Source: Candidatus Yanofskybacteria bacterium RIFCSPHIGHO2_01_FULL_44_24
GTDB lineage: Bacteria > Patescibacteriota > Minisyncoccia > 2-02-FULL-40-12 > GWA2-44-9
Direction: 5' to 3'
DNA: 64,000 nt
NCBI GenBank assembly: GCA_001794215.1
Contig: MGJK01000011.1
Coordinates: 3,170 to 67,169 of the forward strand
This document shows, piece after piece, positions 3,455 through 36,640 of the stretch. The position numbers and the translations under genes are program-made. A model generated the notes under the pieces. The model was given only the letters and a program-made list of their open reading frames with translations. It ran no database searches and was not told the DNA's origin. How positions within the stretch are numbered: the first letter of the stretch is position 1; every line of letters starts with the position of its first letter.

Positions 3455-4717
3455 CTAGTACTCGTACATAGAGAGCTGGGCATCCACCTGCTTCATGGTT
3501 TCCAAAGCCACTGAAACAACGATTAATATCGAGGTGCCTCCAACCTGAAGAGCCGTAATACCGGTGAAGCCCTGAACAATATTCGGTAATACCGCTATCA
3601 CTCCCAAAAATATAGCTCCGACCAAGGTAACTCGATTCAATAAGTGATTAAGAAATTGAGCCGTCATCGGTCCGGGCCTGATACCGGGGATATATCCGCC
3701 TTGTTTCTGAATGTTTTCTGAAATAGATTTAGGATCAAAGGTAATCGCGGTGTAGAAATACGTAAATAGGACGACTAAGAGGAAGTAAAACATGGAATAC
3801 CAGACTTGGGATTGCAAAAAACCGTTAACTATCTGAGAAATTCTTGAAATTACGGCGATATTTGTTCCGGCCAAAAAATTAGCAATCATGCCCGGAAAAA
3901 GCAGAATGGATAAGGCGAATATGATCGGGATAACGCCGGCATTATTGACCCTCATCGGTAAATAAGTAGATACCCCGCCATAAACCTTGAATCCCCTGAC
4001 TCTTCGAGCATAGTTAACCGGAATGTTCCTTTGGGCCTCGGATATATAAACTACACCGACAACAACTATAAGGGCGACTATGATAAAGCCGGCGTAAGAG
4101 AACAGATCTTGGCCCGATGTGTAAGAAAAGAGAGCCTGTTGAACGCTTCCCGGGAAACCAGCCACTATGCCGGCTAAAATCAAAAGGGATGTTCCATTTC
4201 CAAGATTTTTTTCGGTGATCAATTCACCAAGCCACATAAAGAATATGCTACCAGCAGTAATCACGAGCAGTGTTGAAGCCCATTCTACCATGCTTAAGCT
4301 GTCGATAACTCCTTGCCGGGATAAAAGAACCAGAAAACCATATCCCTGAAGAATAGCCAAAGGAACGGTCAACACCCTTGAATACTGATTAAATCTCGCC
4401 CGACCGGCTTCTCCTTCGTATTTATACATCTGCTCCATGGCCGGGAATATCATCGTTAAGAGCTGCATGATAATTGAGCTGGTGATATAGGGACCCAAAC
4501 CGAGCATGCCTATCGAAAGGGCGGAAAATGACCCTCCTGTGAAGGCGCTGATCAGGCCGAAAAATTGATTCTGGCTCAAAAAATCCTGAAGCCTCGAAGC
4601 ATCTATCGCCGGAATAGGAATATTCGAGATAATCCTGAAAACAACCAAAAGTCCGAAGATAAATAAAACCTTATTTCTTAATTCCGGTCTTTTAAAAATT
4701 TGAAGAATACGCTGCAT
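3455..4717 (-). CDS. secY: preprotein translocase subunit SecY
   Basis: 420 aa with 10 TM segments and typical SecY motifs (GLGPYITSSIIMQLL). Position after rplO. Confidence 0.95.
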   Translation of the reverse strand: MQRILQIFKRPELRNKVLFIFGLLVVFRIISNIPIPAIDASRLQDFLSQNQFFGLISAFTGGSFSALSIGMLGLGPYITSSIIMQLLTMIFPAMEQMYKYEGEAGRARFNQYSRVLTVPLAILQGYGFLVLLSRQGVIDSLSMVEWASTLLVITAGSIFFMWLGELITEKNLGNGTSLLILAGIVAGFPGSVQQALFSYTSGQDLFSYAGFIIVALIVVVGVVYISEAQRNIPVNYARRVRGFKVYGGVSTYLPMRVNNAGVIPIIFALSILLFPGMIANFLAGTNIAVISRISQIVNGFLQSQVWYSMFYFLLVVLFTYFYTAITFDPKSISENIQKQGGYIPGIRPGPMTAQFLNHLLNRVTLVGAIFLGVIAVLPNIVQGFTGITALQVGGTSILIVVSVALETMKQVDAQLSMYEY

Positions 4718-4820
4718 TCGAGTTTATAAAGTTTGTAAAGTTATAATGTTTATAAAGTTTTAGTGAATCTGAGCCTTACTTATTAACTTTATTAACTTTA
4801 AGAACTTGATGAACTTTTAA

Positions 4821-5291
4821 CTATTTGATTGTCCCTCCGGCTTTCAGAACTTTGTTTTTGGCTGATTTGGAGAACTGAAAACCTTCGAACTGCATTTTTT
4901 TCTTAAGCTCTCCCCCGCCAAGTATCTTTACCCCGTTTGCAATCTTATCGATCAATCCTTTTTCTTTAAGCAGACCGGGCGTAACGACATCTACGTCAAA
5001 TTGATTGAAAAATCCTAAATTTAAAACTCCGGGCTTTGTATGCCTGAGCTGAAAATACCGGTGCTTTGGATGGGGATTGGAACCTCCGGGCTTTTTTGAG
5101 GCTCCTCTTTGCTTGGGAAACAGCTGCCAAAGCCTGCTATCGCCGCCCCTGAAACCTGGCTTGACTCCTGCGCCGGCCCGGGATTTTTGACCTTTCATAC
5201 CTTTGCCGGAGTATGTCCCGCGTTTACCGCCACGGCCGACTCTTTTTCGGTTTTTTCGAAGCGTTTTAGATTTTAATTGTGATAAATCCAT
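4821..5291 (-). CDS. rplO: 50S ribosomal protein L15
   Basis: N-terminus KNRKRVGRGGKRGTYSGKGMKGQKSRAG typical of L15. Confidence 0.9.
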   Translation of the reverse strand: MDLSQLKSKTLRKNRKRVGRGGKRGTYSGKGMKGQKSRAGAGVKPGFRGGDSRLWQLFPKQRGASKKPGGSNPHPKHRYFQLRHTKPGVLNLGFFNQFDVDVVTPGLLKEKGLIDKIANGVKILGGGELKKKMQFEGFQFSKSAKNKVLKAGGTIK

Positions 5292-5374
5292 AGTCGTTTA
5301 ACTAAAGTTAAAATTTAAAAATCAAAATGCAAAATTCCTGTAACTCATTAAAATCTTTGATTTTAATGAGCATC

Positions 5375-5944
5375 CTAAACTTTTAACTTTTCGCTTTTAA
5401 TTTTTAATTTCTTTAAGGCTTCTATCGTAGCCATGGCAATATTGATCTTATTATTTGTTCTTTCGATGAGCTTTCCGGTCAATGCAGTTATGCCTAAAAG
5501 CTTAGCGACAACTCGAACGGGTCCGCCGGCTTTTACTCCACCGATCGTCGGCTTTAATAAAACTACGGCACTATTGTATTTGGCTTCAACTTGATAAGGA
5601 ATGGTACCCTTAACAATCGGGATTGTTATAAGATTTTTCTTAGCCCTGTTGAAAGCTTTTTGGACTGACTGAGCGACGTCTCTTCCTTTATTAATACCTA
5701 TGCCAACCCTTCCTTTGCCGTCTCCGATGACAATAGTCGCTCGAAAACTAAATCTCTTGCCGCCCTTAGTAACCCTTGTTACCCTGGCAATATCAATGAC
5801 TTTCTGTTCAAACTCCGATTTAGCATCGCCGGAATGCCCTCCTCTGCGAGGTCCGCGTCCACCCCTGCCTCCTCTTCCGCCCATTCTGTTCCTATTGTCA
5901 CCCCTGGGGACATTGCCTATATTATTTTGTTTAATTGGTTCCAT
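5375..5944 (-). CDS. rpsE: 30S ribosomal protein S5 with N-terminal Gly/Arg-rich extension
   Basis: S5 dsRBD and C-terminal domain (VTRVTKGGKRFSF..GDGKGRVG..). Start moved to the internal Met (MEPIKQ) because the upstream 8 codons lie inside the H3 repeat. RGGRGGRGPRRGG extension. Confidence 0.85.
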   Translation of the reverse strand: MEPIKQNNIGNVPRGDNRNRMGGRGGRGGRGPRRGGHSGDAKSEFEQKVIDIARVTRVTKGGKRFSFRATIVIGDGKGRVGIGINKGRDVAQSVQKAFNRAKKNLITIPIVKGTIPYQVEAKYNSAVVLLKPTIGGVKAGGPVRVVAKLLGITALTGKLIERTNNKINIAMATIEALKKLKIKSEKLKV

Positions 5945-6058
5945 CCCGTTAGAAGTAGTGCAAAGCACCCACTACCACCGTGCGGTGCGATACATTTCTT
6001 ATTATTGTTTTACCGATATTCATGTTATTCAACCACGTTAGGGGTACTTCTAACGGGA
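5944..6058. repeat. H-family hairpin element copy 3, filling the entire rplR-rpsE spacer
   Basis: TCCCGTTAGAAGTAG ... TACTTCTAACGGGA terminal inverted repeats (14/15 complementary). About 85 nt variable interior. Confidence 0.55.
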
Positions 6059-6062
6059 TTAA

Positions 6063-6422
6063 TTAAATTTTAAGCCCTCCCGCTCTCAATCCTTCAACTA
6101 AAGCCTTTATCCGACCATGATATTTAGATCCTCCCCGGTCAAGCACGGCTTCTTTGATTCCCATTTCTTTGGCTTTTTCAGATAACGCCTTAGCAATCGA
6201 GGAGGCCTTCTCGGTCTTAGTACCCTTTGCTTTATTGCTTTTTGAAACTGAACCCTTGATACTCAAGATTGTCTTACCGGTCTGATCATCAATAAATTGA
6301 ACTAAAAGATTTCTGTTACTCTTAAAAACAGATATCCGGGGACGCGCCTTGGTGCCGGCTACCTTGGCTCTTACTCTCTTATGGCGCCTCATTCTATTTA
6401 ATTTTTTATTTTCCGGTTTCAA
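6063..6422 (-). CDS. rplR: 50S ribosomal protein L18
   Basis: 119 aa. Conserved L18 core (RLSVFKSNRNLLVQFIDD..). TTG start. Confidence 0.85.
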   Translation of the reverse strand: MKPENKKLNRMRRHKRVRAKVAGTKARPRISVFKSNRNLLVQFIDDQTGKTILSIKGSVSKSNKAKGTKTEKASSIAKALSEKAKEMGIKEAVLDRGGSKYHGRIKALVEGLRAGGLKI

Positions 6423-6458
6423 TTTATTTTTAATTGATGTCCCTAATCGAACTCTTTA

Positions 6459-7004
6459 TTATCCGGCAGCTACCGCTTTCTTGCCGGCCTTTTTCTTTAT
6501 AACCTCCCCCTGATATCTGATTCCGCTGCCCTTGTAAGGTTCCGGCTCTCTCTTGGACCTTATCCCGGCGGCCACGTGGCCTATAAGCTCATTATCGATG
6601 CCGGATATCTTTATAACGCTCTTTTCAACTTTAAAAGTAACCCCCTCCGGCGCTTTAACCATGATTGGATGTGAATACCCAAGGTTTAGTTCCAGATCAT
6701 TGCCCTTTACATTAGCCTTGTAACCGATGCCTTCGAATTCAAGAACTTTTTCAAAACCGTCGGTAACTCCCTTGATCATGTTCTGAATAAGGGCTCTAAA
6801 CAATCCCCAGGAAGCATTGTCAATTACGGCCTGACCGCTCACCGGTTTAATCATAACTGATCCGTTAGAAACGCTTGCAGATACCGAACCGGAAATCTTC
6901 TTCTTTAATTCACCCTTGGGGCCCTTAACCGAAATCAGACCATCGTTAATCTGGACATCTACTCCTTTTGGTACTGGTATTGGTTTTTTGCCGATTTTCG
7001 ACAT
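6459..7004 (-). CDS. rplF: 50S ribosomal protein L6
   Basis: 181 aa with two L6 repeats (PIPVPKGVDV...GPKGEL). Confidence 0.9.
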   Translation of the reverse strand: MSKIGKKPIPVPKGVDVQINDGLISVKGPKGELKKKISGSVSASVSNGSVMIKPVSGQAVIDNASWGLFRALIQNMIKGVTDGFEKVLEFEGIGYKANVKGNDLELNLGYSHPIMVKAPEGVTFKVEKSVIKISGIDNELIGHVAAGIRSKREPEPYKGSGIRYQGEVIKKKAGKKAVAAG

Positions 7005-7126
7005 AAGCTTCGCTAAATTAAAAACGTAAAACTAAAAATTTAAAACTCTGGAAATCCAAAATTTTCCTTGGAGAAATTTTGGATAACATTAATTTTGCAC
7101 TTTTCGCTTTGCATTTTGAATTTTTA
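7005..7126. repeat. A-type AT-rich intergenic repeat (rpsH-rplF spacer)
   Basis: GCTTCGCTAAATTAAAA...CAAAATTTTCCTTGGAGAAATTTTG...TTTGCATTTTGA module shared with 7529-7645, 10653-10768, 11408-11529, 13410-13527 and 14630-14745. Confidence 0.7.
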
Positions 7127-7528
7127 TTACCACACCTCAAACAGCATTTCTCCTCCTATTTTATTCTTCATGGCTTCCTTGGAACTCATCATACCTTTAG
7201 GAGTCGAGATAACCGCTATTCCATATCCTGATCTTACCGGTTTTATCTCACTTGATTTAACATATAAATGGCGGGATGGACGGCTTATCACCTTGAATCC
7301 GCTTATAGCACCTTGGCCATCTTCGTATTTTAAAGTGATTTCTATATATTCATGTTCGGCCTTAACGGCTTTTTCCTTTTTTCTTTCTACTCCGCTTATG
7401 AATCCGTTTTCCTGCAAAATCGAGGCAATCTTGAACTTAGGTCCGGAAAAAGGAACCGAAACCTGCTCATGCTTAACCGCTTGAGCGTTCTTAATTCTTA
7501 CTAACATGTCTCCTATTGGATATGACAT
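7127..7528 (-). CDS. rpsH: 30S ribosomal protein S8
   Basis: 133 aa. MSYPIGDMLVRIKNA... typical S8 N-terminus. Confidence 0.9.
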   Translation of the reverse strand: MSYPIGDMLVRIKNAQAVKHEQVSVPFSGPKFKIASILQENGFISGVERKKEKAVKAEHEYIEITLKYEDGQGAISGFKVISRPSRHLYVKSSEIKPVRSGYGIAVISTPKGMMSSKEAMKNKIGGEMLFEVW

Positions 7529-7645
7529 AGCTTTACTAAATTAAAAGTTAAAAATGAAAAGTTTAAAATTCTGGTTATTAACTTCTCCGAACCATTCGGA
7601 AAAGTTAATCTCATTAATTTTGATTTTTGATTTTTGCATTTTGAT
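7529..7645. repeat. A-type AT-rich intergenic repeat (rpsN-rpsH spacer)
   Basis: Same module family, with a TCTCCGAACCATTCGGAAAAG inner hairpin variant. Confidence 0.65.
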
Positions 7646-7831
7646 TTACCAAGATGACTTCTTAACTCCGGGTAAAAGGCCTTGGCTGGCTAATTCTCTA
7701 AAATGTATCCGGCACAAACCGAATTTCCTCATGTATCCGCCTTTTCTCCCGCATAGAAAACATCTCCGAACTATCCGTGTTGAAAATTTAGGTTTCTTAT
7801 CTGATCTTGCAATTGTTGATTTCTTTGCCAT
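7646..7831 (-). CDS. rpsN: 30S ribosomal protein S14, zinc-binding type (61 aa)
   Basis: [23 protein letters not shown] zinc-ribbon S14 (type Z) signature. Confidence 0.9.
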
Positions 7832-7913
7832 GTTTGTCTATGAAGCGTAGCTGAATAGCTACAAACATGAGCACCTCGCCGAAGTTCCAAGGGAACGAAG
7901 GCGGGTAGCCCAT

Positions 7914-8459
7914 TTATTTATCTTTTTTTATCGGAAATCCCATTAATTTTAACAATTCAATGCCCCTCTCCCTATTCTTTGCCGTAGTAACAACCGTTAC
8001 CTCTAATCCAAATATATCTTTCAAGCTTTCGTAGGTGATCTCCGGGAATATGCTGTGTTCTTTGATGCCTAAGTTTAAATTGCCCGAGCTGTCAAAATTT
8101 TTCGAATCAATCCCTCTGAAATCTTTGGATCGAGGAAGAGCGACATGGATCAATCGATCTATGAAATCATACATCCTCTTACCGCGCAAGGTAACCACCA
8201 GTCCTATCCTCATCCCCTGCCTAGTCTTAAAACCTGATATAGACTGCTTAGCTGTCCTGAAAACCGCTTTCTGGCCGGAAAGAAGAGCTAAATCTTTCTG
8301 AGCTTTCTCTAAAAACTTTTCATCCTTCGCAACCTTGCCTATACCTACATTTATGACCACCTTTTCAACCCGCGGGACGGCCATCACGTTTTCTATATCA
8401 AAAGCCTTCTGCATTGCAGGTACTATTTTCTTTCTGTATTGTTCTAATAAACTTGACAT
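7914..8459 (-). CDS. rplE: 50S ribosomal protein L5
   Basis: 181 aa with L5 motifs (PRVEKVVINVGIG, RGKRMYDFIDRL). Confidence 0.9.
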   Translation of the reverse strand: MSSLLEQYRKKIVPAMQKAFDIENVMAVPRVEKVVINVGIGKVAKDEKFLEKAQKDLALLSGQKAVFRTAKQSISGFKTRQGMRIGLVVTLRGKRMYDFIDRLIHVALPRSKDFRGIDSKNFDSSGNLNLGIKEHSIFPEITYESLKDIFGLEVTVVTTAKNRERGIELLKLMGFPIKKDK

Positions 8460-8679
8460 ATATTAACGGATTGTTATGCTATCACTAAATTTGCTTTTTG
8501 AAAAGGGATTATCCATATGGAACAGTTTCTTACTCGCGGAAGATTCTTTATCGTTAGCTGGCTTGGACTTACATTTTTGGTCACTTATTTACTCCCTCAA
8601 GCATCACTTGCCGTACTTCTGCTCGTTTCCGGAATACCAGCTTGGTTACTGTCTGGCTGGCTATCCAAGCCCCGTACCG

Positions 8680-8705
8680 CCAAATAAGGCGGTTTTTTAT
8701 TGGGG
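8680..8705 (+). terminator. plus-strand rho-independent terminator (ACCGCC-AAATAA-GGCGGT + TTTTTTA) inside the minus-strand r-protein cluster
   Basis: Perfect 6-bp GC stem followed by a T-run on the plus strand only. On the minus strand the same hairpin is preceded, not followed, by the U-run. Confidence 0.45.
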
Positions 8706-8757
8706 CTCCATCCCCCACCAATTTCGTCCGCCAATCGTATCGCAAGTCGCTCCGTCC

Positions 8758-8862
8758 CGCCCTATCTGGATCCAAATTAACTTTTGGCACACTATCATCT
8801 TACAAATCGCCTTCGGCTTTTCTTCCTGTTAATACCCTTCTTTGTGCCCAGATAGAGCGGGG
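8758..8862. ncRNA. X-family structured element copy 2, inside a 412-bp non-coding insertion between rplX and rplE
   Basis: CCCUAUCUGG ... CGCCUUCGGCU ... GCCCAGAUAGAGCGGGG. The stem carries a compensated C-to-U / G-to-A change relative to copies 1 and 3. Confidence 0.5.
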
Positions 8863-8872
8863 TTCCGCTTCG

Positions 8873-9178
8873 TCAAACCTCCGCTTCACATTTCTTGCAA
8901 ATTCTGGTCTTGTTTACACCTTCCACTTTGTAACCGACTCTCGTCGGCTTACCGCATGACTTACATATCAAAGCAACGCTAGATACGCTGATGGCCCTTT
9001 CTTTATTCACAATCTGTCCTTTCTGGCCTTGCTTGCGCGGTCGAAGATGTCTCTTTACCAAGTTTAATCCTTCGACAACCAAGGTGCCGCTCTCAGGAGA
9101 AACTAAAACAACCTTCCCCTTTTTCCCGCGGTCTTTACCGCCCAGCATTATTACATTGTCACCGCGTTTTAATTTCAT
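8873..9178 (-). CDS. rplX: 50S ribosomal protein L24 with C-terminal C4 zinc-ribbon extension
   Basis: KOW motif (GDNVIMLGGKDRGKKGKV) plus C-terminal CKSCGK...CKKCEAEV. Confidence 0.85.
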   Translation of the reverse strand: MKLKRGDNVIMLGGKDRGKKGKVVLVSPESGTLVVEGLNLVKRHLRPRKQGQKGQIVNKERAISVSSVALICKSCGKPTRVGYKVEGVNKTRICKKCEAEV

Positions 9179-9257
9179 TAAAACAGTTAAAAGTTCGTCA
9201 AGTTCTTAAAGTTTTTAAAGTACTTTATGAACTTTACAAACCTTATAAACTTTAAAC

Positions 9258-9623
9258 TCATACTACTTCTTCCGCTAATGATGCTATCGTAGCAAATCCC
9301 CTCTCTTTTATCTCTCTGGGTATGGGTCCGAATATTCTACCGCCCTTGGGCTCTTTGCCGTCTAATATGACCACCGCATTATCATCAAAACGGATATAAG
9401 TTCCGTCTTTTCTCCTGAAAGCCTTTCTCTGTCTTACTACAACCGCTCTTAGGACATCCTTCTTCTTAACCGCCTTTCTCGGCTCAGCCACTTTAACTGA
9501 AACGACTACAATGTCGCCAAGTTCGGCATACCTTCTCTTTGATCCTCCAAGCACCTTAAAGACCCCCACTTTCTTGGCTCCTGTATTATCTGCGACATTT
9601 ACTATTGAACGTAATTGCAGCAA
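9258..9623 (-). CDS. rplN: 50S ribosomal protein L14
   Basis: [18 protein letters not shown]... canonical L14. Confidence 0.95.
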
Positions 9624-9713
9624 TTCAACTTACAACTGACAACTTACAACTTACAACAATTCTAATTCTATATTCTTTGTCGTTAGTAGTTGGTCGTTAG
9701 TCGTTGGTTAATA

Positions 9714-9968
9714 TTATTCCGCCTTGCTGATTATCACCCATCTCTTATCCTTGGACATCGGCTTGGTCTCGCTCATAAAAACCTGATCGCCGGTATGATA
9801 AGTATTCTCGGGGTTATGAGCTTTGAATCTCCTTGAAACTTTAAAATACTTCTTGTACTTGGGGTGTTTTTTCAAACGCAAGACTTCCACAACGGCTGTC
9901 TTCTGCATCTTATCTGATACGACCGTCCCCTTAAGCACTCTCGGTTTTGAATTAGTATTTTGATCCAT
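9714..9968 (-). CDS. rpsQ: 30S ribosomal protein S17
   Basis: 84 aa. VLKGTVVSDKMQKTAVV... HNPENTYHTGDQV, an S17 OB-fold. Confidence 0.85.
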   Translation of the reverse strand: MDQNTNSKPRVLKGTVVSDKMQKTAVVEVLRLKKHPKYKKYFKVSRRFKAHNPENTYHTGDQVFMSETKPMSKDKRWVIISKAE

Positions 9969-9980
9969 TTAGATTTTTGA

Positions 9981-10187
9981 TTAAGATTTTAATTGCTTAA
10001 AAGCAGTTAAAATTCTGGCTATATCTTTTTTTGTCTTATTTACAACGCTGAAATCCTTAAGTTTTTTGTCGGCCAATTCGAACCTGAACTTCAAAAGCTT
10101 AGCTCTTAATTCATTCAACAACTTTGATAACTCTTCGCCTGTTTTTTGTTTTAATTCATCTGCTTTCATTATATGCTTAAAGCTCAA
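9981..10187 (-). CDS. rpmC: 50S ribosomal protein L29
   Basis: 68 aa helical protein (ELKQKTGEELSKLLNELRAKL) between rplP and rpsQ. Confidence 0.8.
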   Translation of the reverse strand: MSFKHIMKADELKQKTGEELSKLLNELRAKLLKFRFELADKKLKDFSVVNKTKKDIARILTAFKQLKS

Positions 10188-10247
10188 TGACTAATGTGAC
10201 TAAGGCTATAACCGATCTGGCTTTAGTCTTTAGACTTTTAGCCGTGG

Positions 10248-10652
10248 CTATCGTTTCACGATTCTTGTTTTTAGGGGCAATTTATGGGAACCCAACCGCA
10301 AAGCCTCTTTAGCGTCGGCCTCAGAAACGCCGTCGATCTCGAATATTATCTTACCAGCCTCAACCGGTACAATAAAGTGCGAAAGGCCTCCCTTGCCTCC
10401 ACCCATACCCACCTCGGCGCTCTTAGCGGTCCTGGGCTTATCCGGAAATACTCTGGTCCATATTTTACCGCCCCTTTGAACAAATCGAGCCATAACCTTT
10501 CTGGCGGATTCTAACTGATTGGCCTTAACCCAAGATGATTCCCCCGCTTTAAGACCAAACGTACCGAAGCTTAACTCAACGCCTCTTGTGGCGCGCGCTT
10601 TCAACTTGCCTCGATGCACCTTCGGATGTTGTATTCTGGCTGGCTGTAGCAT
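10248..10652 (-). CDS. rplP: 50S ribosomal protein L16
   Basis: 134 aa. MLQPARIQHPKVHRGKLKARATRGVELSFGTFGLKA. Confidence 0.95.
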   Translation of the reverse strand: MLQPARIQHPKVHRGKLKARATRGVELSFGTFGLKAGESSWVKANQLESARKVMARFVQRGGKIWTRVFPDKPRTAKSAEVGMGGGKGGLSHFIVPVEAGKIIFEIDGVSEADAKEALRLGSHKLPLKTRIVKR

Positions 10653-10768
10653 GGCTTCGCTAAATTAAAAGTTAAAAGTTAAAAATGAAAAATTCAGGAA
10701 ATTCAAAATTTTCCTTGGGGAAATTTTGAATAACATTAATTTTGATTTTTGATCTTTGCATTTTGATA
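10653..10768. repeat. A-type AT-rich intergenic repeat (rpsC-rplP spacer)
   Basis: Over 90% identical to the copies at 13410-13527 and 14630-14745. Contains the perfect palindrome CAAAATTTTCC-TTGG-GGAAATTTTG and ends with GCTTCGCTAAATT abutting the start codon. Confidence 0.75.
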
Positions 10769-11407
10769 TTACTTATCAAAGACTTCACCTTTATATATCC
10801 AAACCTTAACGCCTACCGTGCCATATGTAGTATGGGCGGTAGCTTTAGCAAAATCGATATTAGCCCTAAGCGTCTGCAGCGGTAAATTCCCCTCTTCAAG
10901 ATGCTCCGATCTTGCTATTTCTGAACCGTCAAGACGGCCGCCCATCTGAAGCTTGGCTCCCTTGGCTTGCTTATTAGACAATATCTTCGCAAGGGTCTGC
11001 TTAAGAATTCGCCGATAGGGAATCCTCTTCTCCACCTGGTCAACCATAGATTCGGCCATTATCTGAGCTGATAACTCTGGGCTTTTTATCTCTTGAATCT
11101 CTATCCTTACCGAAACTTTATCTTTAAGAAGTCGCTGAACGGCTTTTTTAATATCTTCCACTCCTCCACCGCCTCGTCCTATCAAAAGACCGGGCCTGGC
11201 AGTATGAATAATTATACTTAAGGCATCACTGCCCCTTTCAATCTCTATCTTATCAATACTCATGTTCCTGAGCTTTGATTCTAAAAAGGTTCGGACTTTC
11301 AAATCGTCTTTAAGATAAGGGACGTATTTTCGCCCACCAAACCATCGGGACAGCCAGTCCTTATTAATGCCGAGTCGTAATGATGTTGGTGATATTTTTT
11401 GTCCCAT
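10769..11407 (-). CDS. rpsC: 30S ribosomal protein S3
   Basis: 212 aa with KH domain and S3 C-terminal domain (MGQKISPTSLRLGINKDW). Confidence 0.95.
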   Translation of the reverse strand: MGQKISPTSLRLGINKDWLSRWFGGRKYVPYLKDDLKVRTFLESKLRNMSIDKIEIERGSDALSIIIHTARPGLLIGRGGGGVEDIKKAVQRLLKDKVSVRIEIQEIKSPELSAQIMAESMVDQVEKRIPYRRILKQTLAKILSNKQAKGAKLQMGGRLDGSEIARSEHLEEGNLPLQTLRANIDFAKATAHTTYGTVGVKVWIYKGEVFDK

Positions 11408-11529
11408 AATCGCTTCGCTAAATTTAAAATTTAAAAATCATAGTTAAAAATTATTGAAATTCAAAACTTTGTTAACAAAGTTTTGAGTAACCTGAATTTT
11501 ACATTTTGACATTTGCATTTTGATATTCT
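11408..11529. repeat. A-type AT-rich intergenic repeat, divergent copy (rplV-rpsC spacer)
   Basis: ATCGCTTCGCTAAATTTAAAA...CAAAACTTTGTTAACAAAGTTTTG...TTTGCATTTTGAT. Confidence 0.65.
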
Positions 11530-12036
11530 TTACACCGACTTTCTCTGAAATAATTTTCTACCCATATTAAATACTCCCTTCTTCGATCCTATTTCCCTTT
11601 TAATTTCGTGCTTTTTCTCTTCAGCGTGATGAGCCTCAGTACTCAATTCTTCTTTATGCTTAGCGTCCTGCTCCTTAGTTTTACTGCGCTTGAGACCGGG
11701 AACCCTCTCATCCAAAACTATCGTAACATGGCTTGTCTTTTTCTGGATCGGCTCAGCTCTTCCGAAGCCCTTGGCTCTGAATCGTTTCAACTTTATACCT
11801 TCATTAACAAAGAATTTCTTAACGTAAAGATTATCTCTTACCATCCCGAAACTGTTCTCGGCATTAGCAATAGCGGAGTTAAGAAGTTTTCTAAGATTAT
11901 CGGCCGGTTTCCTAATGAATACCTCGAGCTGATTCAGGGCGTCAACGGCACTCTTTCCTTTGACCAAATTAACCACCGCCCTGACTTTTCTGGGCGCTAT
12001 CCTTAATCTGTTTAATTTTGCGGTGACTTCGGTCAT
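11530..12036 (-). CDS. rplV: 50S ribosomal protein L22 with about 55-aa basic/acidic C-terminal extension
   Basis: L22 core (RIAPRKVRAVVNLVKGKSAVDALNQLE) followed by a Lys/Glu-rich tail. Confidence 0.85.
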   Translation of the reverse strand: MTEVTAKLNRLRIAPRKVRAVVNLVKGKSAVDALNQLEVFIRKPADNLRKLLNSAIANAENSFGMVRDNLYVKKFFVNEGIKLKRFRAKGFGRAEPIQKKTSHVTIVLDERVPGLKRSKTKEQDAKHKEELSTEAHHAEEKKHEIKREIGSKKGVFNMGRKLFQRKSV

Positions 12037-12125
12037 AAATAAACTATCACTTAATCAAGGAACAATGAACATACAGCCCCCCTAATCAATTGTTTTTATG
12101 TTCAAATGTTTCCTGTTTGTATGTT

Positions 12126-12482
12126 TTACTTTTTCGGCGCCGCTGCCTCCGCCGCCGGCGCCGCTTTAGCCGCCTGGGCCGTTTCTATCTCTTTTTGCTT
12201 CTGGGCGGCCTCAAGCTCTCTTTGCATTCTTCCTCCATGCCTTAAGAATTTACGGGTATGGGAAAACTCTCCAAGCTTATGTCCGACCATATCTTCGGTG
12301 ATTAATACCGGGATATGAAATCTCCCGTTGTGCACGCCGAACGTATAGCCTATCATTTCAGGAACGATTGTACAGGCTCTGGACCAGGTCTTAATAACCG
12401 TTTTATCTCCGGCTCTAAGCTTGCTTATCTTCTTAAGCAATTTCTCATCAACGTATGGCCCTTTTTTGAGTGATCGTGACAA
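12126..12482 (-). CDS. rpsS: 30S ribosomal protein S19 with Ala-rich C-terminal extension
   Basis: [19 protein letters not shown]...HNGRFHIPV, a canonical S19, plus [18 protein letters not shown] tail. Confidence 0.9.
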
Positions 12483-12584
12483 CTCGGTTTATAAAGTTTG
12501 TAAAGTTATAAAGTTTATAAAGTTTTGTAAATCTGAACTTTTACCTCTCACTTTATGAACGTTATGAACTTGATGAACTTTTAA
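12483..12584. repeat. B-type AT-rich repeat with 9-10 bp periodic AAGTTTATAA units (rplB-rpsS spacer)
   Basis: GTTTATAAAGTTTGTAAAGTTATAAAGTTTATAAAG... Related copies at 4718-4820, 9179-9257, 21970-22050 and 37886-37986. Confidence 0.65.
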
Positions 12585-13409
12585 CTATTTAATCCGTCTT
12601 CGTATAATGAACTTATTCGACTTATTCTTCCTGTTTCTGGTTTTTACTCCACCCGTTATTCTGCCCTGAGCGGTCTTCGGTCTTCTAGTTCCCCTACCCT
12701 GTCTTCCTTCACCGCCTCCATAAGGATGATCTACCGGATTCATCGCCGTACCCCTAACCTTCGGTCTTATACCGAGCCAGCGCGACCTCCCGGCTTTTCC
12801 TGAAACAACGGAACTGTGCTCCATATTTGAAACATTGCCTATCGATGCGTAGCATTCCTCCGAAATCATTCTTGTTTCTGAAGAAGGCATGACCAATTGA
12901 ACATATCCTCCTTCGCTTGCCAAAACCGTAGCGCCGTTCCCGGCCGATCTCACCATTTTCCCGCCGCTACCAGGAAATGGTTCTATATTATGAACTATAG
13001 AGCCTTGGGGAATATTTTTGAGCTTCATCCTATTCCCGGGCTTAAGCGGTGCTTTTTCAGATGTAATGATTTTATCTCCCGGTTTAAGATCCTGGGGTGC
13101 AATGATGTATCTCTTTTCGCCATCGGCGAAGTGAAGACGGGCAATTCGGGCATTTCTGTTTGGATCATATTCTAAGGAAAAAACGGTAGCCGGAATATTA
13201 AATTTATCCTGCTTGAAATCAACGAGACGATATTGTTTCTTGGCTCCTCCGCCACGATGACCGGCGGTAATTCTTCCCTGGTTATTCCTTCCCCCGGTTC
13301 TTTTAAGATGCTCCTTCAAAAACCTTAAAGGCTCAGTCTTGGTTAATTGAGAAAAGTCCGGTCCTATCATGTGTCGCCTTGAAGGCGTTGTCGGCTTGTA
13401 ATACTTCAT
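12585..13409 (-). CDS. rplB: 50S ribosomal protein L2
   Basis: 274 aa. GRNNQGRITAGHRGGG ... HPYGGGEGR motifs. Confidence 0.95.
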   Translation of the reverse strand: MKYYKPTTPSRRHMIGPDFSQLTKTEPLRFLKEHLKRTGGRNNQGRITAGHRGGGAKKQYRLVDFKQDKFNIPATVFSLEYDPNRNARIARLHFADGEKRYIIAPQDLKPGDKIITSEKAPLKPGNRMKLKNIPQGSIVHNIEPFPGSGGKMVRSAGNGATVLASEGGYVQLVMPSSETRMISEECYASIGNVSNMEHSSVVSGKAGRSRWLGIRPKVRGTAMNPVDHPYGGGEGRQGRGTRRPKTAQGRITGGVKTRNRKNKSNKFIIRRRIK

Positions 13410-13527
13410 CGCTTCGCTGAATTAAAAATTAAAAGTTAAAAATGAAAAATTCAGGAAATTCAAAATTTTCTTTGGGGAAATTTTGAATAACATTAATTTT
13501 GATTTTTGATATTTGCATTTTGATCTT
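13410..13527. repeat. A-type AT-rich intergenic repeat (rplW-rplB spacer)
   Basis: Near-identical to 10653-10768 and 14630-14745. Confidence 0.75.
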
Positions 13528-13926
13528 TTAGGCCTTTGCCTGTTCTATTGTATAACCCTTTTTTAAAACTACGATTGCTTTCTTAAATCCTGATCTGAAT
13601 CCCGGATGCCTGCCCAAATCTTTTCGTTTCTGGGGCATATTTAAAATCTTAACGTCCTTCACCTTAACATTGAATAATTTTTCAACCTTTTCTCTGATCT
13701 GGGTTTTATTCGCATCAGGAAAAACTTTGAAAATATACTGATTATACGGAGCAATCAATGCCGATTTCTCGCTTATATAAATACTCTTGATAACACGGTA
13801 AGCATCGGAGTTGTCGGCTGAAATATGATCCGATAAGCTTCCCCCGGATGCAGATTCTTCCTGATTTTTTAATTCAGTTTCCTCGGATTGATCCTTTTTG
13901 GGTTTTTTGCTGAATAAGGCGGACAT
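13528..13926 (-). CDS. rplW: 50S ribosomal protein L23 with N-terminal extension
   Basis: L23 core (VIKSIYISEKS...FKV) preceded by a roughly 40-aa acidic/Ser-rich extension. Confidence 0.8.
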   Translation of the reverse strand: MSALFSKKPKKDQSEETELKNQEESASGGSLSDHISADNSDAYRVIKSIYISEKSALIAPYNQYIFKVFPDANKTQIREKVEKLFNVKVKDVKILNMPQKRKDLGRHPGFRSGFKKAIVVLKKGYTIEQAKA

Positions 13927-13993
13927 TTGTCTATGGCTTCAGGTCTAAGGCTTAAAGCAATGGGGCTTTAGTCTTTAGACTTTTAGCTATTAG

Positions 13994-14629
13994 CTATTTA
14001 CTAAAGTATGTCAATGAATCTTTCGTCATTAAAAGATATCTGCTGCCAAGAACGGCGGCTGCATTCAAATTCCTTGCCTCATAAACATCGGTTCGGGGAA
14101 TATTCCTTGAGGCTATCTTAATATCATTTTTGCTGTCGCTTGGAACAACTATCATCATGGATTGGTTCTTTTTTTCGACAAACAAATTTAAAACTGCCCT
14201 GGTAACCGCCGCCATTTCTCTTGTCTTCCTGTTCTCAAGCTTAATATCATCCAAAACTATAATCTGGCCGTCTCGAGCTTTAGCTGACAACGCAGTAAAC
14301 AAAGCTTTTTTGGCCATTTTCTTATTTATTTTTTTCTTAAAAATCCTCTCTTTAGTCGGACCGCCGGTAACTCCTCCGCCCTTCCAGATCGGAGATCGTA
14401 TAGAACCGTGACGGGCCCTACCGGTTCCTTTCTGTCTCCAGGGCTTCTTTCCACCGCCACGCACCTCTCCCCTTCCTTTGGTATGGGCGATCGTCTGTCT
14501 TTGGTTGGCTATCTGAGAAGTTACAACCTGATGCAGTAAATCTTTATTCATCTCCAAATTAAAAACCTGATCTACGAGATCAATCTGTCCGACTTTCTCT
14601 GCTTTTTGATTATACAGCGGCAATTTCAT
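13994..14629 (-). CDS. rplD: 50S ribosomal protein L4
   Basis: 211 aa. KGRGEVRGGGKKPWRQKGTGRARHGS, a canonical L4. Confidence 0.95.
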   Translation of the reverse strand: MKLPLYNQKAEKVGQIDLVDQVFNLEMNKDLLHQVVTSQIANQRQTIAHTKGRGEVRGGGKKPWRQKGTGRARHGSIRSPIWKGGGVTGGPTKERIFKKKINKKMAKKALFTALSAKARDGQIIVLDDIKLENRKTREMAAVTRAVLNLFVEKKNQSMMIVVPSDSKNDIKIASRNIPRTDVYEARNLNAAAVLGSRYLLMTKDSLTYFSK

Positions 14630-14745
14630 CGCTTCGCTAAATTAAAAATTAAAAGTTAAAAATGAAAAATTCAGGAAATTCAAAATTTTCCTTGGGAAAA
14701 TTTTGAATTTCATTAATTTTGATTTTTGATCTTTGCATTTTGATC
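14630..14745. repeat. A-type AT-rich intergenic repeat (rplC-rplD spacer)
   Basis: Near-identical to 10653-10768 and 13410-13527. Confidence 0.75.
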
Positions 14746-15354
14746 TTATTGTGTTTGGACCATAACTACTCCCCCATTATTACCGGGAACCGCTCCCTTT
14801 ACCGCTAAAAGTCCTTTTTCCTCATCTATCGCCACAACTCGAAGACCTCTGACGGTAAATTTATCATTTCCCATCCTACCGGGCATCCTCATACCTTTTA
14901 AAGTATGCTGAGGAAATCTTTGTCCGATTGAACCGGCATGACGCATTACAGAATGATGGCCGTGACTGGCAGGCATACCGGAGAATCCATGTCTTTTTAC
15001 CACGCCCTGAAAACCTTTTCCTTTAGTCATCCCCGTAACCTTCACCAAATCGCCGACGGCGAAGAGAGAAACATTGAGCTTATCTCCGCGCTTTAGCTCT
15101 CCGGGAGTAGTTCTGAATTCTTTTAAGACTTTGAAAGTTCCCAAGTCCTTGGTATGTCCTTTCTGAGCCTTGGTCACGTTTTTTTCCTTTCTTTTTCCGA
15201 ATCCAACCTGAACACCTTCGTATTTATCTTTTTCCTTCGTTCTAATCTGAACCACAGTATTCGTTTCCGCCTCAATAACCGTCACCGGAGTGACGTCACC
15301 TTTATCATCATATATCTGGGACATGCCCATTTTTTTACCTAATATGAACTTCAT
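14746..15354 (-). CDS. rplC: 50S ribosomal protein L3
   Basis: 202 aa. GMTKGKGFQGVVKRHGF... canonical L3. Confidence 0.95.
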   Translation of the reverse strand: MKFILGKKMGMSQIYDDKGDVTPVTVIEAETNTVVQIRTKEKDKYEGVQVGFGKRKEKNVTKAQKGHTKDLGTFKVLKEFRTTPGELKRGDKLNVSLFAVGDLVKVTGMTKGKGFQGVVKRHGFSGMPASHGHHSVMRHAGSIGQRFPQHTLKGMRMPGRMGNDKFTVRGLRVVAIDEEKGLLAVKGAVPGNNGGVVMVQTQ

Positions 15355-15363
15355 AGCTAAAAC

Positions 15364-15627
15364 TTATAATCCTCTTTCTAAAATACTATTGTAAATCTTT
15401 AATAACTCTTCTTTATCATCCGATCTTTCTATTAATTCATGAACTACTTGAATAGTCCTGCTTGGAACCATAAAAACTCCTCTTCCAAAACTCCGTATAG
15501 CGCTCCTTTCTTCATCATTAACGGCTAAATCCGACAGCCTTTTAGTCAGCTTGTCTCTTTCGGACTTTGTTTTATCTACTAGTTCTCTTTCCATTTTCCA
15601 CAAAAAACACCGGACTAGCCGGTGCAA
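15364..15627 (-). CDS. hypothetical small protein inserted between rpsJ and rplC (probably 76 aa from MERELV)
   Basis: ORF ends 10 nt before the rplC start. No recognisable family. Charged helical N-terminus, GRGVFMVPSRTIQVVHELIE core. Confidence 0.4.
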   Translation of the reverse strand: MHRLVRCFLWKMERELVDKTKSERDKLTKRLSDLAVNDEERSAIRSFGRGVFMVPSRTIQVVHELIERSDDKEELLKIYNSILERGL

Positions 15628-15840
15628 CCTAAGCTAATCTTAACAACTTATCTATTAAATGGTTCTATATTGATTTAAAACCAATCTTGATTATTTAAGG
15701 CATCATACCAATAATGAATTTTTAGTAAACCACTGGGCGCGGGAGGATTCCTCCTCCGGCCTTTCGTGGATAAATTCTACTATCGATTACTACCTTATTC
15801 TCTCGTCCCGTTCTTTGAGGCGAGAAGTAAGGGAATAATT

Positions 15841-16185
15841 TTAAAGTCTTTCTTTCAATTTTCCCAGCTTGTACTCAATGGTGTCCAAGGCGTCACGTTG
15901 TTCCAAGAATCTGTCCTGCAAATCGGTTCCCAGAACTTCCTCAGCCTTTAAATCGTTTAAGATCCTACTAATGCTATCCAAGGTCTCTGTCATTTGGCCT
16001 ATAACTTTTTCCGTATCAGTTTGTCCTTCAATTTTTGGTTCTTGGGGTTCTGAGGTTTTATCCGGAATATCTTCCCCTAAATTTCTCACTCTCAATTCTT
16101 CTTCATGCTGTTCAACTGATTCTTCGGGAGTATTTGGTTTTTTAAATTCTTTTGACATATCATTACTTATTGATTTTATACTCAT
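15841..16185 (-). CDS. hypothetical acidic coiled-coil protein (114 aa) inserted in the S10 operon
   Basis: Glu/Asp-rich, predicted helical (LNDLKAEEVLGTDLQDRFLEQRDALDTIEYKLGKLKERL). No family recognised. Confidence 0.4.
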   Translation of the reverse strand: MSIKSISNDMSKEFKKPNTPEESVEQHEEELRVRNLGEDIPDKTSEPQEPKIEGQTDTEKVIGQMTETLDSISRILNDLKAEEVLGTDLQDRFLEQRDALDTIEYKLGKLKERL

Positions 16186-16209
16186 GCCGCCCCAGCACCA
16201 ATCTTTTCT

Positions 16210-16377
16210 TTACTTGTTTTCTTTCAGTTTTTCTGTGTCGCCAAACAATTCATGTCTTGACGTTTTGTGAGGACCTCCGCATGTATCACACACAGGATTT
16301 GTTTTCATTTCTTCTCTTAATTCTTCCTCGGTCTCTGTTTCGGTGGGGTGCTTTTGTTTTGGTTCTTGGAGTTCCAT
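16210..16377 (-). CDS. hypothetical 55-aa ORF with CxxC motif (below the ORF-track length cut-off)
   Basis: Hand-translated as MELQEPKQKHPTETETEEELREEMKTNPVCDTCGGPHKTSRHELFGDTEKLKENK. Its stop lies 25 nt upstream of the start of the 114-aa ORF. Not in the ORF track. Confidence 0.25.
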   Translation of the reverse strand: MELQEPKQKHPTETETEEELREEMKTNPVCDTCGGPHKTSRHELFGDTEKLKENK

Positions 16378-16399
16378 GTTATTTATCCACGAATCCCGG

Positions 16400-16499
16400 C
16401 CCCATCTGGAGCGACACTCGTAATATTACTTGGTTTATTTTGCAAAACGCCTTCGGCTCTATCTGGTCTTTACTGTCATTCTTGCCCAGATGGAGCGGG
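16400..16499. ncRNA. X-family structured element copy 3, in the insertion between rpsJ and rplC
   Basis: CCCCAUCUGGAG ... ACGCCUUCGGCUCU ... GCCCAGAUGGAGCGGGA. Confidence 0.5.
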
Positions 16500-16554
16500 A
16501 TAAATTCCGGCAACCAATCGTCCTTCGCTACTGCTCGGACTCTTGGGCCGTCAT

Positions 16555-16908
16555 TTACATCTTTACCTCTATATCAACTCCGGCCGGTAAGTTTAAATTC
16601 ATTAAAGAATCGATTATTTTGGGTGTCGGCGCAGGAACATCAATTATTCTCTTATGGGTTCGCATTTCAAACTGCTCTCGTGAATTCTTATCAATGAAGG
16701 ACGAGCGATTTACGGTGTATTTATTTATTTCCGTAGGCAAGGGAACTGGTCCGGTCGGCTTACCGCCGTTTCTCTCTATCGTCTCGACAATCTGCTGAGC
16801 TGACTTATCGATAATTTTATTATCATAAGCCCGCAGTTTGATGCGTATTCTTTGACTAACCTCTTTTTCTTTTTCTTTTTTCGCCATACCCAGTATATCA
16901 ACTTCCAA
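16555..16908 (-). CDS. rpsJ: 30S ribosomal protein S10 (with short N-terminal extension)
   Basis: [39 protein letters not shown], a canonical S10. Confidence 0.9.
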
Positions 16909-18276: not shown

Positions 18277-18397
18277 CTGTGTCCCTTACAACTTACAACT
18301 AATGACTTATCCTACTGTATGGCGGATCAGCCGTCGGTTGTTGGTTATTGGTTAAATAGTTAAAACAGCAATATTTATTGTAATCTAAGTATCAAAA

Positions 18398-18712: not shown

Positions 18713-18790
18713 CGAATGTCTAAAGTCTAAAGACTAAAGTCTAAAGCCAGAAATTTAAGCCTTAATCCTTGGTCTTTTTGCCTTAAGCTA

Positions 18791-36453: not shown

Positions 36454-36640
36454 AGTCGATTCTCTAAATTAAAAACTTAAAACGAAAAATTAAAAATTGG
36501 ATCTATCCAAGGCCAAACCGCCTTAATTTTGCGCTTTTCGCTTTAAATTTTAAACTATCTTCTAACTTGTATTATCACAAAAGGAAATAGAGCACAAGGA
36601 ACACCCCCTGTGGATAAAATGTGTACAAGAATCCCCTACG

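Follow-up and report, generated by a model that had tools for sequence, protein, structure and literature searches.

Eight intergenic spacers in a 64,000-nt stretch of Candidatus Yanofskybacteria DNA (contig MGJK01000011.1; hereafter the window) hold copies of one AT-rich module of ~116 nt, which lies between genes of the S10/spc ribosomal protein (r-protein) cluster and upstream of ftsZ. Each copy ends in a 12-14-nt box, TTTAGCGAAGCG, separated from the ATG by a linker of 0-4 nt. The module is a repeat family whose recent amplification in this genome reached at least eight junctions, and relative to close relatives it is a lineage-specific insertion. The box is shared across Parcubacteria, where it is strongly biased in orientation and in distance to the ATG and is enriched before translation genes. 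The reading that we favor, at somewhat less than even confidence, is that the module is a co-transcribed, copy-paste intergenic cassette that may act as a leader independent of the Shine-Dalgarno (SD) sequence, with a fold-back that would keep the stop and start codons adjacent.

A Repeat Module with a Terminal Box

Repeat finding and alignment placed all eight copies in spacers of the minus strand, on the coding strand, and in the same orientation. At 0-8 nt after the stop codon the module begins with an A-rich arm composed of units of roughly 7 nt (ATCAAAA, TGCAAAG), after which come a central palindrome (11-18 pairs), a T-rich arm made up of heptads such as TTTTTCA, TTTTAAC and TTTTAAT, the box and the ATG; its termini are (G)ATCAAAATGCAAAG... 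at one end and ...TTTAGCGAAGCG at the other (Table 1). The original prediction, an earlier reading of the window, had listed seven copies on this strand, and all seven are present where it placed them; we added the eighth, a partial copy before rplO. It had also given the module a single palindrome. The arms and the box do recur, whereas the palindrome CAAAATTTYCC...GGAAAATTTTG is common to only four copies and is replaced by unrelated palindromes in the remaining ones. Three copies (10648-10770, 13405-13527 and 14625-14747) are 93-95% identical over 123 nt, and a fourth (7001-7123) is 76% identical.

The claim that a conserved 14-nt motif lies against the start codon was well supported. With up to two mismatches, the 14-mer occurs 7 times in the window versus 1.07 expected, a count reached in none of 100 shuffles, and for six of the seven matches a start codon follows within 0-4 nt. 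A profile built from the T-rich arm and the box recovered precisely seven copies in the window and nothing further. The modules had furthermore been said to fill almost every spacer of the cluster; they occupy eight junctions, and the remaining long spacers hold other repeat families (see below). A search with the Rfam 15 covariance models gave no match on the modules at gathering thresholds or at E <= 1, and neither terminal inverted repeats nor a clear target-site duplication were seen at the module ends beyond a possible AT.

Three candidate features of the module were rejected. A relay mini-ORF (open reading frame), running from an ATG in AAAATGCAAA over 24-33 codons to a TAA in the T-rich arm, is present in six S10/spc copies, as expected from the stop-poor A-rich arm, and is not conserved in metagenomic copies. 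The palindrome AAGCGCTT, considered as a protein operator, occurs in only about a quarter of copies. The sequence GCGAAGC, at the end of the box, had been put forward as a structural mini-hairpin; its extension AGCG-AAG-CGCU is confined to variants with a GCTT linker and is not conserved.

Modules Are Insertions Relative to Close Relatives

Relatives were found through homologues of L2, which led to eight related S10/spc clusters; a contig scan based on S3 gave a best identity of 49% and no close relative. Fetched loci are designated by L numbers. The closest relative is L089, with an L2 protein 86% identical to that of the window. At junctions where the window carries 102-122-nt modules, three relatives (L087, L089 and L091) have spacers of 0-17 nt, the presence/absence pattern at orthologous sites that defines a mobile repeat. 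Two others, L088 and L092, are expanded at almost every junction by other families or by type-A-like modules (type A being the module described above) that end in ...ATTTAATTTTTGAT-ATG and are located at different junctions, e.g. L15 to secY in L088. L085 has instead a GC-rich palindromic element of 115 nt, and the further relative L206 carries a box-bearing type-A module between S19 and L22, where the window spacer differs. A type-B spacer of L088 is 91% identical to one in the window, although the coding DNA is too diverged for blastn alignment. The short spacers in relatives, together with modules at other junctions, indicate that the modules are insertions subject to turnover and not an ancestral architecture.

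The Box Recurs before Start Codons in Parcubacteria

One metagenome scan with the exact 17-mer TTTTAATTTAGCGAAGC returned 116 stretches, corresponding to 84 distinct contexts. One much-duplicated human-gut sequence and scattered GC-normal contexts were discarded as chance matches, and the remainder are AT-rich contigs from groundwater and sediment. About 55 distinct contexts are from Parcubacteria, with the box 2-4 nt ahead of an ATG. As a negative control, viral contigs scanned with AGCGAAGCGCTTATG gave 28 chance matches, none of them CPR-like (CPR, candidate phyla radiation). In 43 of 60 distinct AT-rich contexts an ATG follows the box within 8 nt, and in 36 of 60 it lies exactly 4 nt after GCGAAGC (p = 2e-49), with G-C/A-T-T as the linker consensus. 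The four heptads upstream of the 17-mer show a clean 7-nt periodicity across the 60 contexts (T4-5 N A A). Sense copies outnumber inverted ones by 55:7 (p = 2e-10). Approximately 20 of 48 downstream genes encode r-proteins (p = 2e-10), among them L32 (six times), L27 and S14 (twice each), S7, S8, S18, S19, S20, S21, L2, L16, L22 and L34; other proteins encoded downstream include RpoC, EF-G, DnaA, NusB, RnpA, AtpD, FtsE/X and the aminoacyl-tRNA synthetases LysS and SerS. Exact-sequence look-ups assigned some of the contigs to Candidatus Nealsonbacteria and others to the Parcubacteria group, and the box therefore crosses candidate-phylum lines.

About half of the contexts are full palindromic modules between co-oriented genes, e.g. 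rpoB and rpoC in L136, and the others have the heptads and box alone or the box as the entire spacer (L094: stop-TTTTTAATTTAGCGAAGCGCTT-ATG). Among the inverted copies, two abut the 3' ends of opposite-strand tRNA-Arg genes (L139 668-690; L179 1363-1385) and about five abut the 3' ends of opposite-strand ORFs, with the stop codon supplied by the reverse complement of the box. In two loci, L122 (minus strand, upstream of an MreB-like gene) and L180, GCGAAGC is duplicated around nested inserts; these inserts are an element of 78 nt bounded by terminal inverted repeats (CCAGTAAGAC...CTCTACTGG) and a GC hairpin of 28 nt. L151 has a tandem duplication of GCGAAGC. The box may be a hotspot for insertions.

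SD Sites Are at Background Level

An SD site was scored when at least four consecutive bases complementary to the 16S 3' tail (AGGAGGT) ended 4-13 nt before the start. The canonical tail was assumed; no 16S 3' end is contained in the window or in ~240 fetched loci, and the GGAGGTG carried by two window genes supports the assumption. The original prediction had stressed that these r-protein genes lack an SD site. Indeed, none of the eight module-preceded genes has one; however, this lack is the rule in the genome, since an SD 4-mer at -16 to -5 precedes 10 of 74 genes versus 7 of 74 in a control window. The absence of SD sites before these r-protein genes is therefore the norm rather than special. 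The box resembles an SD element in its position (-15 to -4) and its tightly constrained distance to the AUG; it differs in having no CCUCC complementarity beyond AAG, in being much longer, and in being present at a minority of genes.

Hairpins Fill Expanded Junctions in CPR Genomes

Folded as RNA and compared with shuffled sequences, five of the eight window copies have z scores of -2.2 to -3.4 and a sixth is marginal (z -1.7). The two arms are heptad arrays in inverted orientation, and the full range of z among window modules is -3.4 to -0.2; many metagenomic copies fold strongly. In the rpsH-rplF junction a hairpin covers the entire spacer (-26.7 kcal/mol, z -3.4) and the rplC-rplD module folds at -24 kcal/mol (z -3.2), while the rplW-rplB module reaches only z -0.2. 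Among all window spacers, 14 of 22 have a minimum free energy z of -2.5 or lower.

The original prediction had contrasted the long r-protein spacers of the window with those of most bacteria. This holds against bacteria outside the CPR, but the S10/spc clusters of many other CPR genomes are similarly expanded. In a set of 80 loci anchored on S3, expanded junctions (median of at least 50 nt) occur only in CPR genomes, while the medians of Firmicutes and Proteobacteria are 5-24 nt. We folded 147 expanded spacers from 14 CPR loci and obtained a median z of -3.5. The dominant hairpin in these spacers covers 83% of the spacer versus 64% in shuffles (p = 1e-9). It begins 4 nt past the stop codon, compared with 9 nt for shuffled sequences (p = 9e-7), and its other end is ~9 nt short of the start codon. 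Hairpin-filled junctions are a general CPR feature among the loci sampled.

A Candidate SD-Independent Leader

Under the reading that we favor, a Parcubacteria-wide family of intergenic cassettes would spread by copy-and-paste, whether through transposition, gene conversion or template switching, and each cassette would be transcribed within the operon mRNA. Its 3' half, with three or four U-rich heptads (UUUUNAN) and the box UUUAGCGAAGCG at about -15 to -4, would act as leader for the cistron that follows and make initiation independent of SD sites, which are hardly used in this organism. The box would be recognized by rRNA, an r-protein or another factor. The A-rich arm and palindrome would fold the spacer into a hairpin starting a few nucleotides past the stop codon, so that the stop and the next start codon would stay close, with ~10 unpaired nucleotides (the box) before the AUG. 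An insertion of such a shape could be tolerated inside translationally coupled r-protein operons, and operon coupling would survive it. The original prediction had offered three options, a promoter for each gene, a non-SD initiation element and the binding site of an RNA-binding protein. Judged from the sequence data, the non-SD initiation element fits best, given the fixed ATG spacing, the 55:7 orientation and the translation genes downstream.

Several observations weigh against this reading. The box is dispensable: the S10/spc clusters of the eight Yanofskybacteria relatives lack it, and an nhmmer profile search for diverged boxes found essentially none there. It is likewise missing from ~12 other Parcubacteria S10/spc loci sampled without bias, with a degenerate relative only in L009. 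Other spacer families in the same operon lack the box and precede genes that are presumably expressed equally well. None of three rpmF orthologues sampled regardless of the box carries it, and their promoters lie 8-14 nt from the ATG. The linker between box and ATG varies from 0 to 4 nt among window copies, and flushness with the ATG alone is no proof of ribosome positioning, because an unrelated repeat family (CCCGTTAGA, below) is also flush. The box pairs over at most 3 nt with the canonical anti-SD sequence. In L097 (1990-2010) a copy is found 4 nt upstream of the mature tRNA-Glu 5' end, a position that a translation signal does not explain, and the approximately seven inverted copies abut the 3' ends of genes or tRNAs. 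In addition, the predicted folding of two of the near-identical window copies is not stronger than that of shuffled sequences (z -0.4 and -0.2).

A bolder version, which we regard as unlikely, is that Parcubacteria possess a dedicated, sequence-specific and SD-independent start-site selector. Here the UUUAGCGAAGCG box and U-rich heptads would be read by a ribosome-associated factor or an rRNA segment and would bring growth genes, including those for r-proteins and tRNAs, together in a single post-transcriptional regulon, the bacterial analogue of the 5' terminal oligopyrimidine (5'TOP) system of eukaryotes. The hairpins would carry ribosomes from stop to start over at least 100 nt (bridged coupling or shunting), and the cassette would be a portable expression module that was recruited repeatedly.

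Alternative Explanations

The module could instead be a selfish or neutral intergenic repeat without a role, comparable to miniature inverted-repeat transposable elements (MITEs), REPINs or ERIC elements. The box would then be a terminus for mobilization, and its biases would reflect those insertions into very short spacers that are not lethal. Such an origin would account for the patchy presence among close relatives with copies at non-orthologous positions, for near-identical copies within the genome, for the lack of the box at the unbiased rpmF orthologues (0/3), and for the existence of inverted and tRNA-adjacent copies. It also agrees with the nested inserts flanked by duplicated GCGAAGC (L122, L180) and with the many unrelated palindromic families in CPR junctions, another of which is likewise ATG-flush. 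However, the module ends show neither terminal inverted repeats nor a clear target-site duplication. The 64-kb window has neither a transposase nor a RAYT gene, only a serine recombinase gene (54283-55809), and among 40 non-ribosomal ORFs scanned none encodes a RAYT (Y1_Tnp) or DDE transposase. The exact 17-mer recurs across candidate phyla though its flanking heptads have diverged. The 55:7 orientation and fixed +4 spacing also hold in long 5' untranslated regions (UTRs), such as those of rpmF and dnaA, where space is not limiting. We consider a purely selfish repeat to have a low probability and prefer the leader cassette, because the former leaves the orientation and spacing bias in roomy 5' UTRs unexplained.

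A promoter in each cassette is a less probable explanation still. TAATTT within the box would be a weak -10 element, GCGAAGCG a GC-rich discriminator and the T-rich heptads a UP-like element; transcription would start 0-6 nt before the ATG, giving a near-leaderless mRNA, and the upstream hairpin would act as an insulator or terminator. Positions 2 and 6 of TAATTT are the A and the T of a -10 hexamer, and its distance to the ATG is 9 nt in the window and 12 nt in general. Comparable native distances of 6-16 nt were found at rplE, at rpmF (L238, L240) and at the window genes 37987-38454 and 41368-41976, and at some window genes an extended -10 element is only 6-7 nt away from the ATG, which suggests leaderless mRNAs for these genes; the rpmF promoters 8-14 nt from the ATG likewise imply near-leaderless mRNAs. 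A gap of 4 nt also separates the box from the tRNA-Glu gene, the genes downstream of the box are classic examples of growth-rate control, and one copy scores as a bidirectional terminator-like hairpin.

The promoter searches gave a different picture. Sigma-70-like sites number 18 in 4600-15800 versus 22.5 expected, with a minus-strand match in only one of the eight copies, and 6 in 51 box contexts versus 4.9 in shuffles. Position frequencies around the box contain no -35 element or TG extension, and -26 to -21 is TTTAAT-like heptad sequence. The TTGAAT/TTTAAT promoter that had been proposed for each gene thus found no support: TTGAAT belongs to the central palindrome and is not conserved across copies. 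Promoters in this lineage are canonical: as a positive control across five genomes, TTGTCA-17-TAGAAT was detected before rplE in four relatives and, in weaker form, in the window. Every box-bearing rpmF context examined keeps an intact canonical TTGNNA-17-TANNNT promoter with the box 13-38 nt downstream of it, so that the box falls within the 5' UTR. The six or seven rpmF box matches are a case of repeated or patchy acquisition, and deep gene-specific conservation of the box at rpmF is ruled out by the three box-free orthologues. Around position 10001 of L238-L240, rpmF lies in a synteny conserved in Parcubacteria (rnhB - rpmF - nusB - rnc, encoding RNase III - rpsP - khpA - trmD - rpmG).

We assign a similarly small probability to the box as the site of an RNA-binding protein or an endonuclease, which would define mRNA 5' ends by cutting or capping upstream of the AUG or tRNA or would co-regulate r-protein mRNAs, with RNase III possibly cleaving the hairpin too. 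At least 17 identical nucleotides exceed a typical rRNA-pairing element, the 4-nt spacing is the same before the ATG and before the tRNA-Glu 5' end, and the downstream gene set resembles a regulon. Hairpins of 35-45 bp, the RNase III gene in the conserved rpmF-nusB-rnc operon of Parcubacteria, and a YbeY gene in the window (37987-38454) also fit. Such a site is at odds with the 0-4-nt linker of the window copies, with the absence of the box from most orthologous genes, and with the other module families that have no shared box. Finally, intrinsic terminators or attenuators that grade transcription along the operon are very improbable: the A-tract, hairpin and U-tract arrangement has the layout of a bidirectional terminator (14675-14711 was flagged on both strands) and modules also occur at convergent junctions (L181), but the stems are AT-rich without an immediate U-run, terminator-like signals are not enriched, only 14675-14711 among the eight copies passes a lenient scan for a G+C-rich stem with an immediate U-run, with 4 G-C pairs of 17, and stopping after each essential r-protein gene would need a promoter per gene, none of which is evident.

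Other Repeat Families and Gene Content of the Window

Other long spacers of the cluster are imperfect palindromes of short tandem units that form separate families, built of the 9-mer AACTTTATA and the 7-mers TTTAGAC and TTGTAAG (Table 1). With units of 7-9 nt, they fill spacers in the S10/spc, str and ftsAZ regions, and the 9-mer and TTGTAAG families recur in the relative L088, one copy at 91% identity. A second, unrelated family, CCCGTTAGA...TCTAACGGG, is 46-118 nt long and is bounded by perfect terminal inverted repeats of 11 nt (ATCCCGTTAGA...TCTAACGGGAT). The AT at its right-hand end frequently doubles as the first two letters of the next start codon, as before adk, rpsE, rplX and rplC in the window and in relatives, and the family looks like a MITE inserted into overlapping TAATG-type junctions. 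Its fusion to starts indicates that ATG flushness can arise by insertion into very short, often overlapping stop/start junctions. Repeats of the CCTAATTTCTAATT type recur in the distant CPR loci L006, L092 and L206.

Table 1. Modules, boxes, further repeat families and the gene cluster (window coordinates unless a locus is given)
Feature	Position (strand)	Description
Type-A module, rplC to rplD	14630..14745 (-)	A-rich arm 14745-14714; palindrome 14713-14673 (18 pairs); T-rich heptads and box 14672-14630
Box, rplC to rplD	14630-14643	AATTTAGCGAAGCG; abuts ATG
Type-A module, rplW to rplB	13410..13527 (-)	A-rich arm 13527-13489; palindrome 13488-13458; T-rich arm and box 13457-13410; reference copy of repeat family D2
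Box, rplW to rplB	13410-13423	AATTCAGCGAAGCG; abuts ATG
Type-A module, rplV to rpsC	11408..11529 (-)	A-rich arm 11529-11489; T-rich arm and box 11458-11408
Palindrome, rplV to rpsC	11488-11459	ACTCAAAACTTTGTTAACAAAGTTTTGA; differs from the shared palindrome
Box, rplV to rpsC	11411-11424	Followed by ATT, then ATG
Type-A module, rpsC to rplP	10653..10768 (-)	A-rich arm 10768-10732; palindrome 10731-10701; T-rich arm and box 10700-10653
Box, rpsC to rplP	10653-10666	AATTTAGCGAAGCC; before ATG; module 93% identical to the 13405-13527 copy
Type-A module with variant box, rpsN to rpsH	7529..7645 (-)	A-rich arm 7645-7610; unrelated palindrome ATTAACTTTTCCGAATGGTTCGGAGAAGTTAAT 7609-7577
Variant box, rpsN to rpsH	7529-7542	AATTTAGTAAAGCT; before ATG
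Type-A module, rpsH to rplF	7005..7126 (-)	A-rich arm 7126-7085; palindrome 7084-7054; T-rich arm and box 7053-7005
Box, rpsH to rplF	7006-7019	AATTTAGCGAAGCT; followed by T, then ATG
Partial type-A module without A-rich arm, rpsE to rplO	5292..5374 (-)	Palindrome 5370-5344; T-rich heptads and degenerate box ...AACTTTAGTTAAACGACT before ATG
Type-A relative upstream of ftsZ	36454..36560 (-)	Arms AAAGCGAAAAGCGCAAAATT / AATTTTTCGTTTTAAG
Variant box upstream of ftsZ	36457-36470	AATTTAGAGAATCG; followed by ACT, then ATG
9-mer AACTTTATA family	4718-4820, 9179-9257, 12483-12584, 21970-22052, 37886-37986	
TTTAGAC family	10188-10247, 13927-13993, 18713-18790	
TTGTAAG family	9624-9713, 18277-18397	
CCCGTTAGA family, window	2906-3022 (-), 5945-6057, 300-345	
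CCCGTTAGA family, other loci	L085 6123-6227; L086 13878-13995, 5249-5317; L091 8196-8283; L136 10363-10444, 11271-11380; L206 5228-5335	
CCTAATTTCTAATT-type repeats	39024-39115, 39878-39969	Outside the r-protein cluster
CGAAATTCGAAAT-type repeats	62043-62191, 23396-23514	Outside the r-protein cluster
S10/spc cluster (Pfam)	rplC 14746-15354 to secY 3455-4717 (-)	Order: rplC, rplD, rplW, rplB, rpsS, rplV, rpsC, rplP, rpmC, rpsQ, rplN, rplX, rplE, rpsN, rpsH, rplF, rplR, rpsE, rplO, secY

The window DNA matches NCBI GCA_001795655.1 and contigs from Rifle groundwater metagenomes at 100% identity. Its L2 protein carries the name Candidatus Yanofskybacteria bacterium RIFCSPHIGHO2_02_FULL_44_12, an uncultured groundwater member of the Parcubacteria within the CPR. 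All contigs with the same L2 protein are 100% identical to the window and gave no population signal. Gene identities in the S10/spc cluster (L3, L4, L23, L2, S19, L22, S3, L16 and onward to SecY) are those of the Pfam annotation of the identical public contig, and Pfam also bears out FtsA and FtsZ (ftsZ, 35269-36453).

No rpmD gene (L30) is present between rpsE and rplO (5292-5374 / 4821-5968); a missing rpmD is typical of CPR genomes. The start of rpsE is probably miscalled: the longest ORF begins at a GTG at 5968, within a CCCGTTAGA repeat, and the likely start is the ATG at 5944 (MEPI...), flush with the repeat end. In the 413-nt gap between rplX and rplE (8460-8872) there are an opposite-strand ORF (57 aa, hydrophobic; 8517-8690, +), with no detectable homologue in the rplX-rplE gaps of relatives, a terminator-like hairpin (8676-8693), and a promoter-like TTTTCA-17-TAGCAT before rplE, for which relatives have the canonical TTGTCA-17-TAGAAT. 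The hairpin and the promoter-like site suggest that the spc operon is split here. A 1.2-kb gap (15355-16554) between rpsJ (16555-16887) and rplC holds small unannotated ORFs and a terminator-like hairpin with a T-run (15607-15625, -). The corresponding gap is 230-1100 nt in all relatives, with conserved blocks (...AATAAGGTAGTAAT...), and may be a structured leader or attenuator.

Elsewhere in the window, the 5' end of a 23S rRNA gene is located at 1-209 (-) with no 16S gene upstream within the window, and the rRNA genes therefore appear unlinked. The large serine recombinase gene (54283-55809, +) lies beside tRNAs at 55783-55855 and 57762-57835 and a pair of tRNA-like repeats at 55821-55946, a region that may be an integrated element. 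A conserved small ORF between fusA and tuf (18398-18712, -), of 91-133 aa in relatives, has solely a sub-threshold match to Phd/YefM antitoxins (E 3e-4).

Relation to Known Systems and Significance

The closest published parallel to the module is the TAACTGA heptamer direct repeat found upstream of start codons in Beggiatoaceae, Cyanobacteria and Bacteroidetes (MacGregor 2015, PMC4679880), for which a post-transcriptional or translational role was proposed with S1, Csp or CsrA as candidate binders (PMC4679880). Both consist of tandem 7-nt units ending a few nucleotides from starts inside r-protein operons, usually without an SD site (here four periodic units in 60 contexts), with translation genes over-represented downstream and a patchy, possibly horizontal distribution. 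They differ in that the unit here is TTTTNAN and the tract ends in an invariant non-repeat box, TTTAGCGAAGCG, before the ATG, in that an inverted A-rich arm and a central palindrome often accompany the tract, and in the host, which belongs to the CPR.

Intergenic hairpin repeats are the second group of comparison. REP and REPIN elements are mobilized by RAYT transposases (Bertels & Rainey 2011, PMC3116915) and carry GTAG/CGTC tags (PMC3733652). The module resembles REPINs as an extragenic unit of ~100 nt whose two inverted arms may form a hairpin in single-stranded DNA or mRNA, and it shares with them the presence of many copies, persistence in a lineage and non-orthologous positions. However, its ends carry neither a GTAG nor a CGTC tag, its arms are heptad arrays rather than REP palindromes, and while REPINs are random in extragenic space, here 8 of 8 window copies are co-oriented, sense copies exceed inverted ones by 55:7 in the metagenomes, and 36 of 60 lie exactly 4 nt from the ATG. 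The terminal inverted repeats and target-site duplication that mark a MITE are not seen in the module, in contrast to the perfect 11-nt terminal repeats of the CCCGTTAGA family.

ERIC (IRU) elements are ~127-bp imperfect palindromes in transcribed intergenic regions of enterobacteria, and MIRUs are 46-101-bp units inside mycobacterial operons, oriented with the genes, whose small ORFs overlap the flanking stop and start codons; translational coupling has been proposed as the reason that MIRUs are tolerated. The module is similar in size, in its place inside operons and, as with MIRUs, in its co-orientation with transcription. The sequences are unrelated, and the mini-ORF here (AAAATGCAAA ATG to T-arm TAA) clears the flanking codons and is unconserved in metagenomic copies. 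RNase III processing hairpins separate cistrons of the phage T7 early mRNA. These are likewise long hairpins between cistrons of one transcript, and cleavage of the module would free the downstream leader; the stems here differ in being A-U rich with many mismatches. We found no published literature on such a motif in Parcubacteria or Patescibacteria. The module combines two known kinds of element, start-proximal heptad repeats and intergenic hairpin repeats.

CPR genomes are streamlined, yet many of the sampled loci carry a hairpin-forming repeat of 60-200 nt at nearly every junction of their most conserved operon. These expanded junctions contradict the usual picture of tightly coupled r-protein genes and raise the question of how stoichiometric expression is kept. 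They also affect annotation, as start codons are miscalled around modules (rpsE was extended into a repeat) and spurious ORFs are called within them. The invariant box near starts offers a defined cis-element with which translation initiation can be tested in a group that makes scarcely any use of SD sites, at least in the genome analyzed here. If the cassette is indeed a self-sufficient leader, it would represent a natural portable expression part for organisms not yet genetically manipulable.

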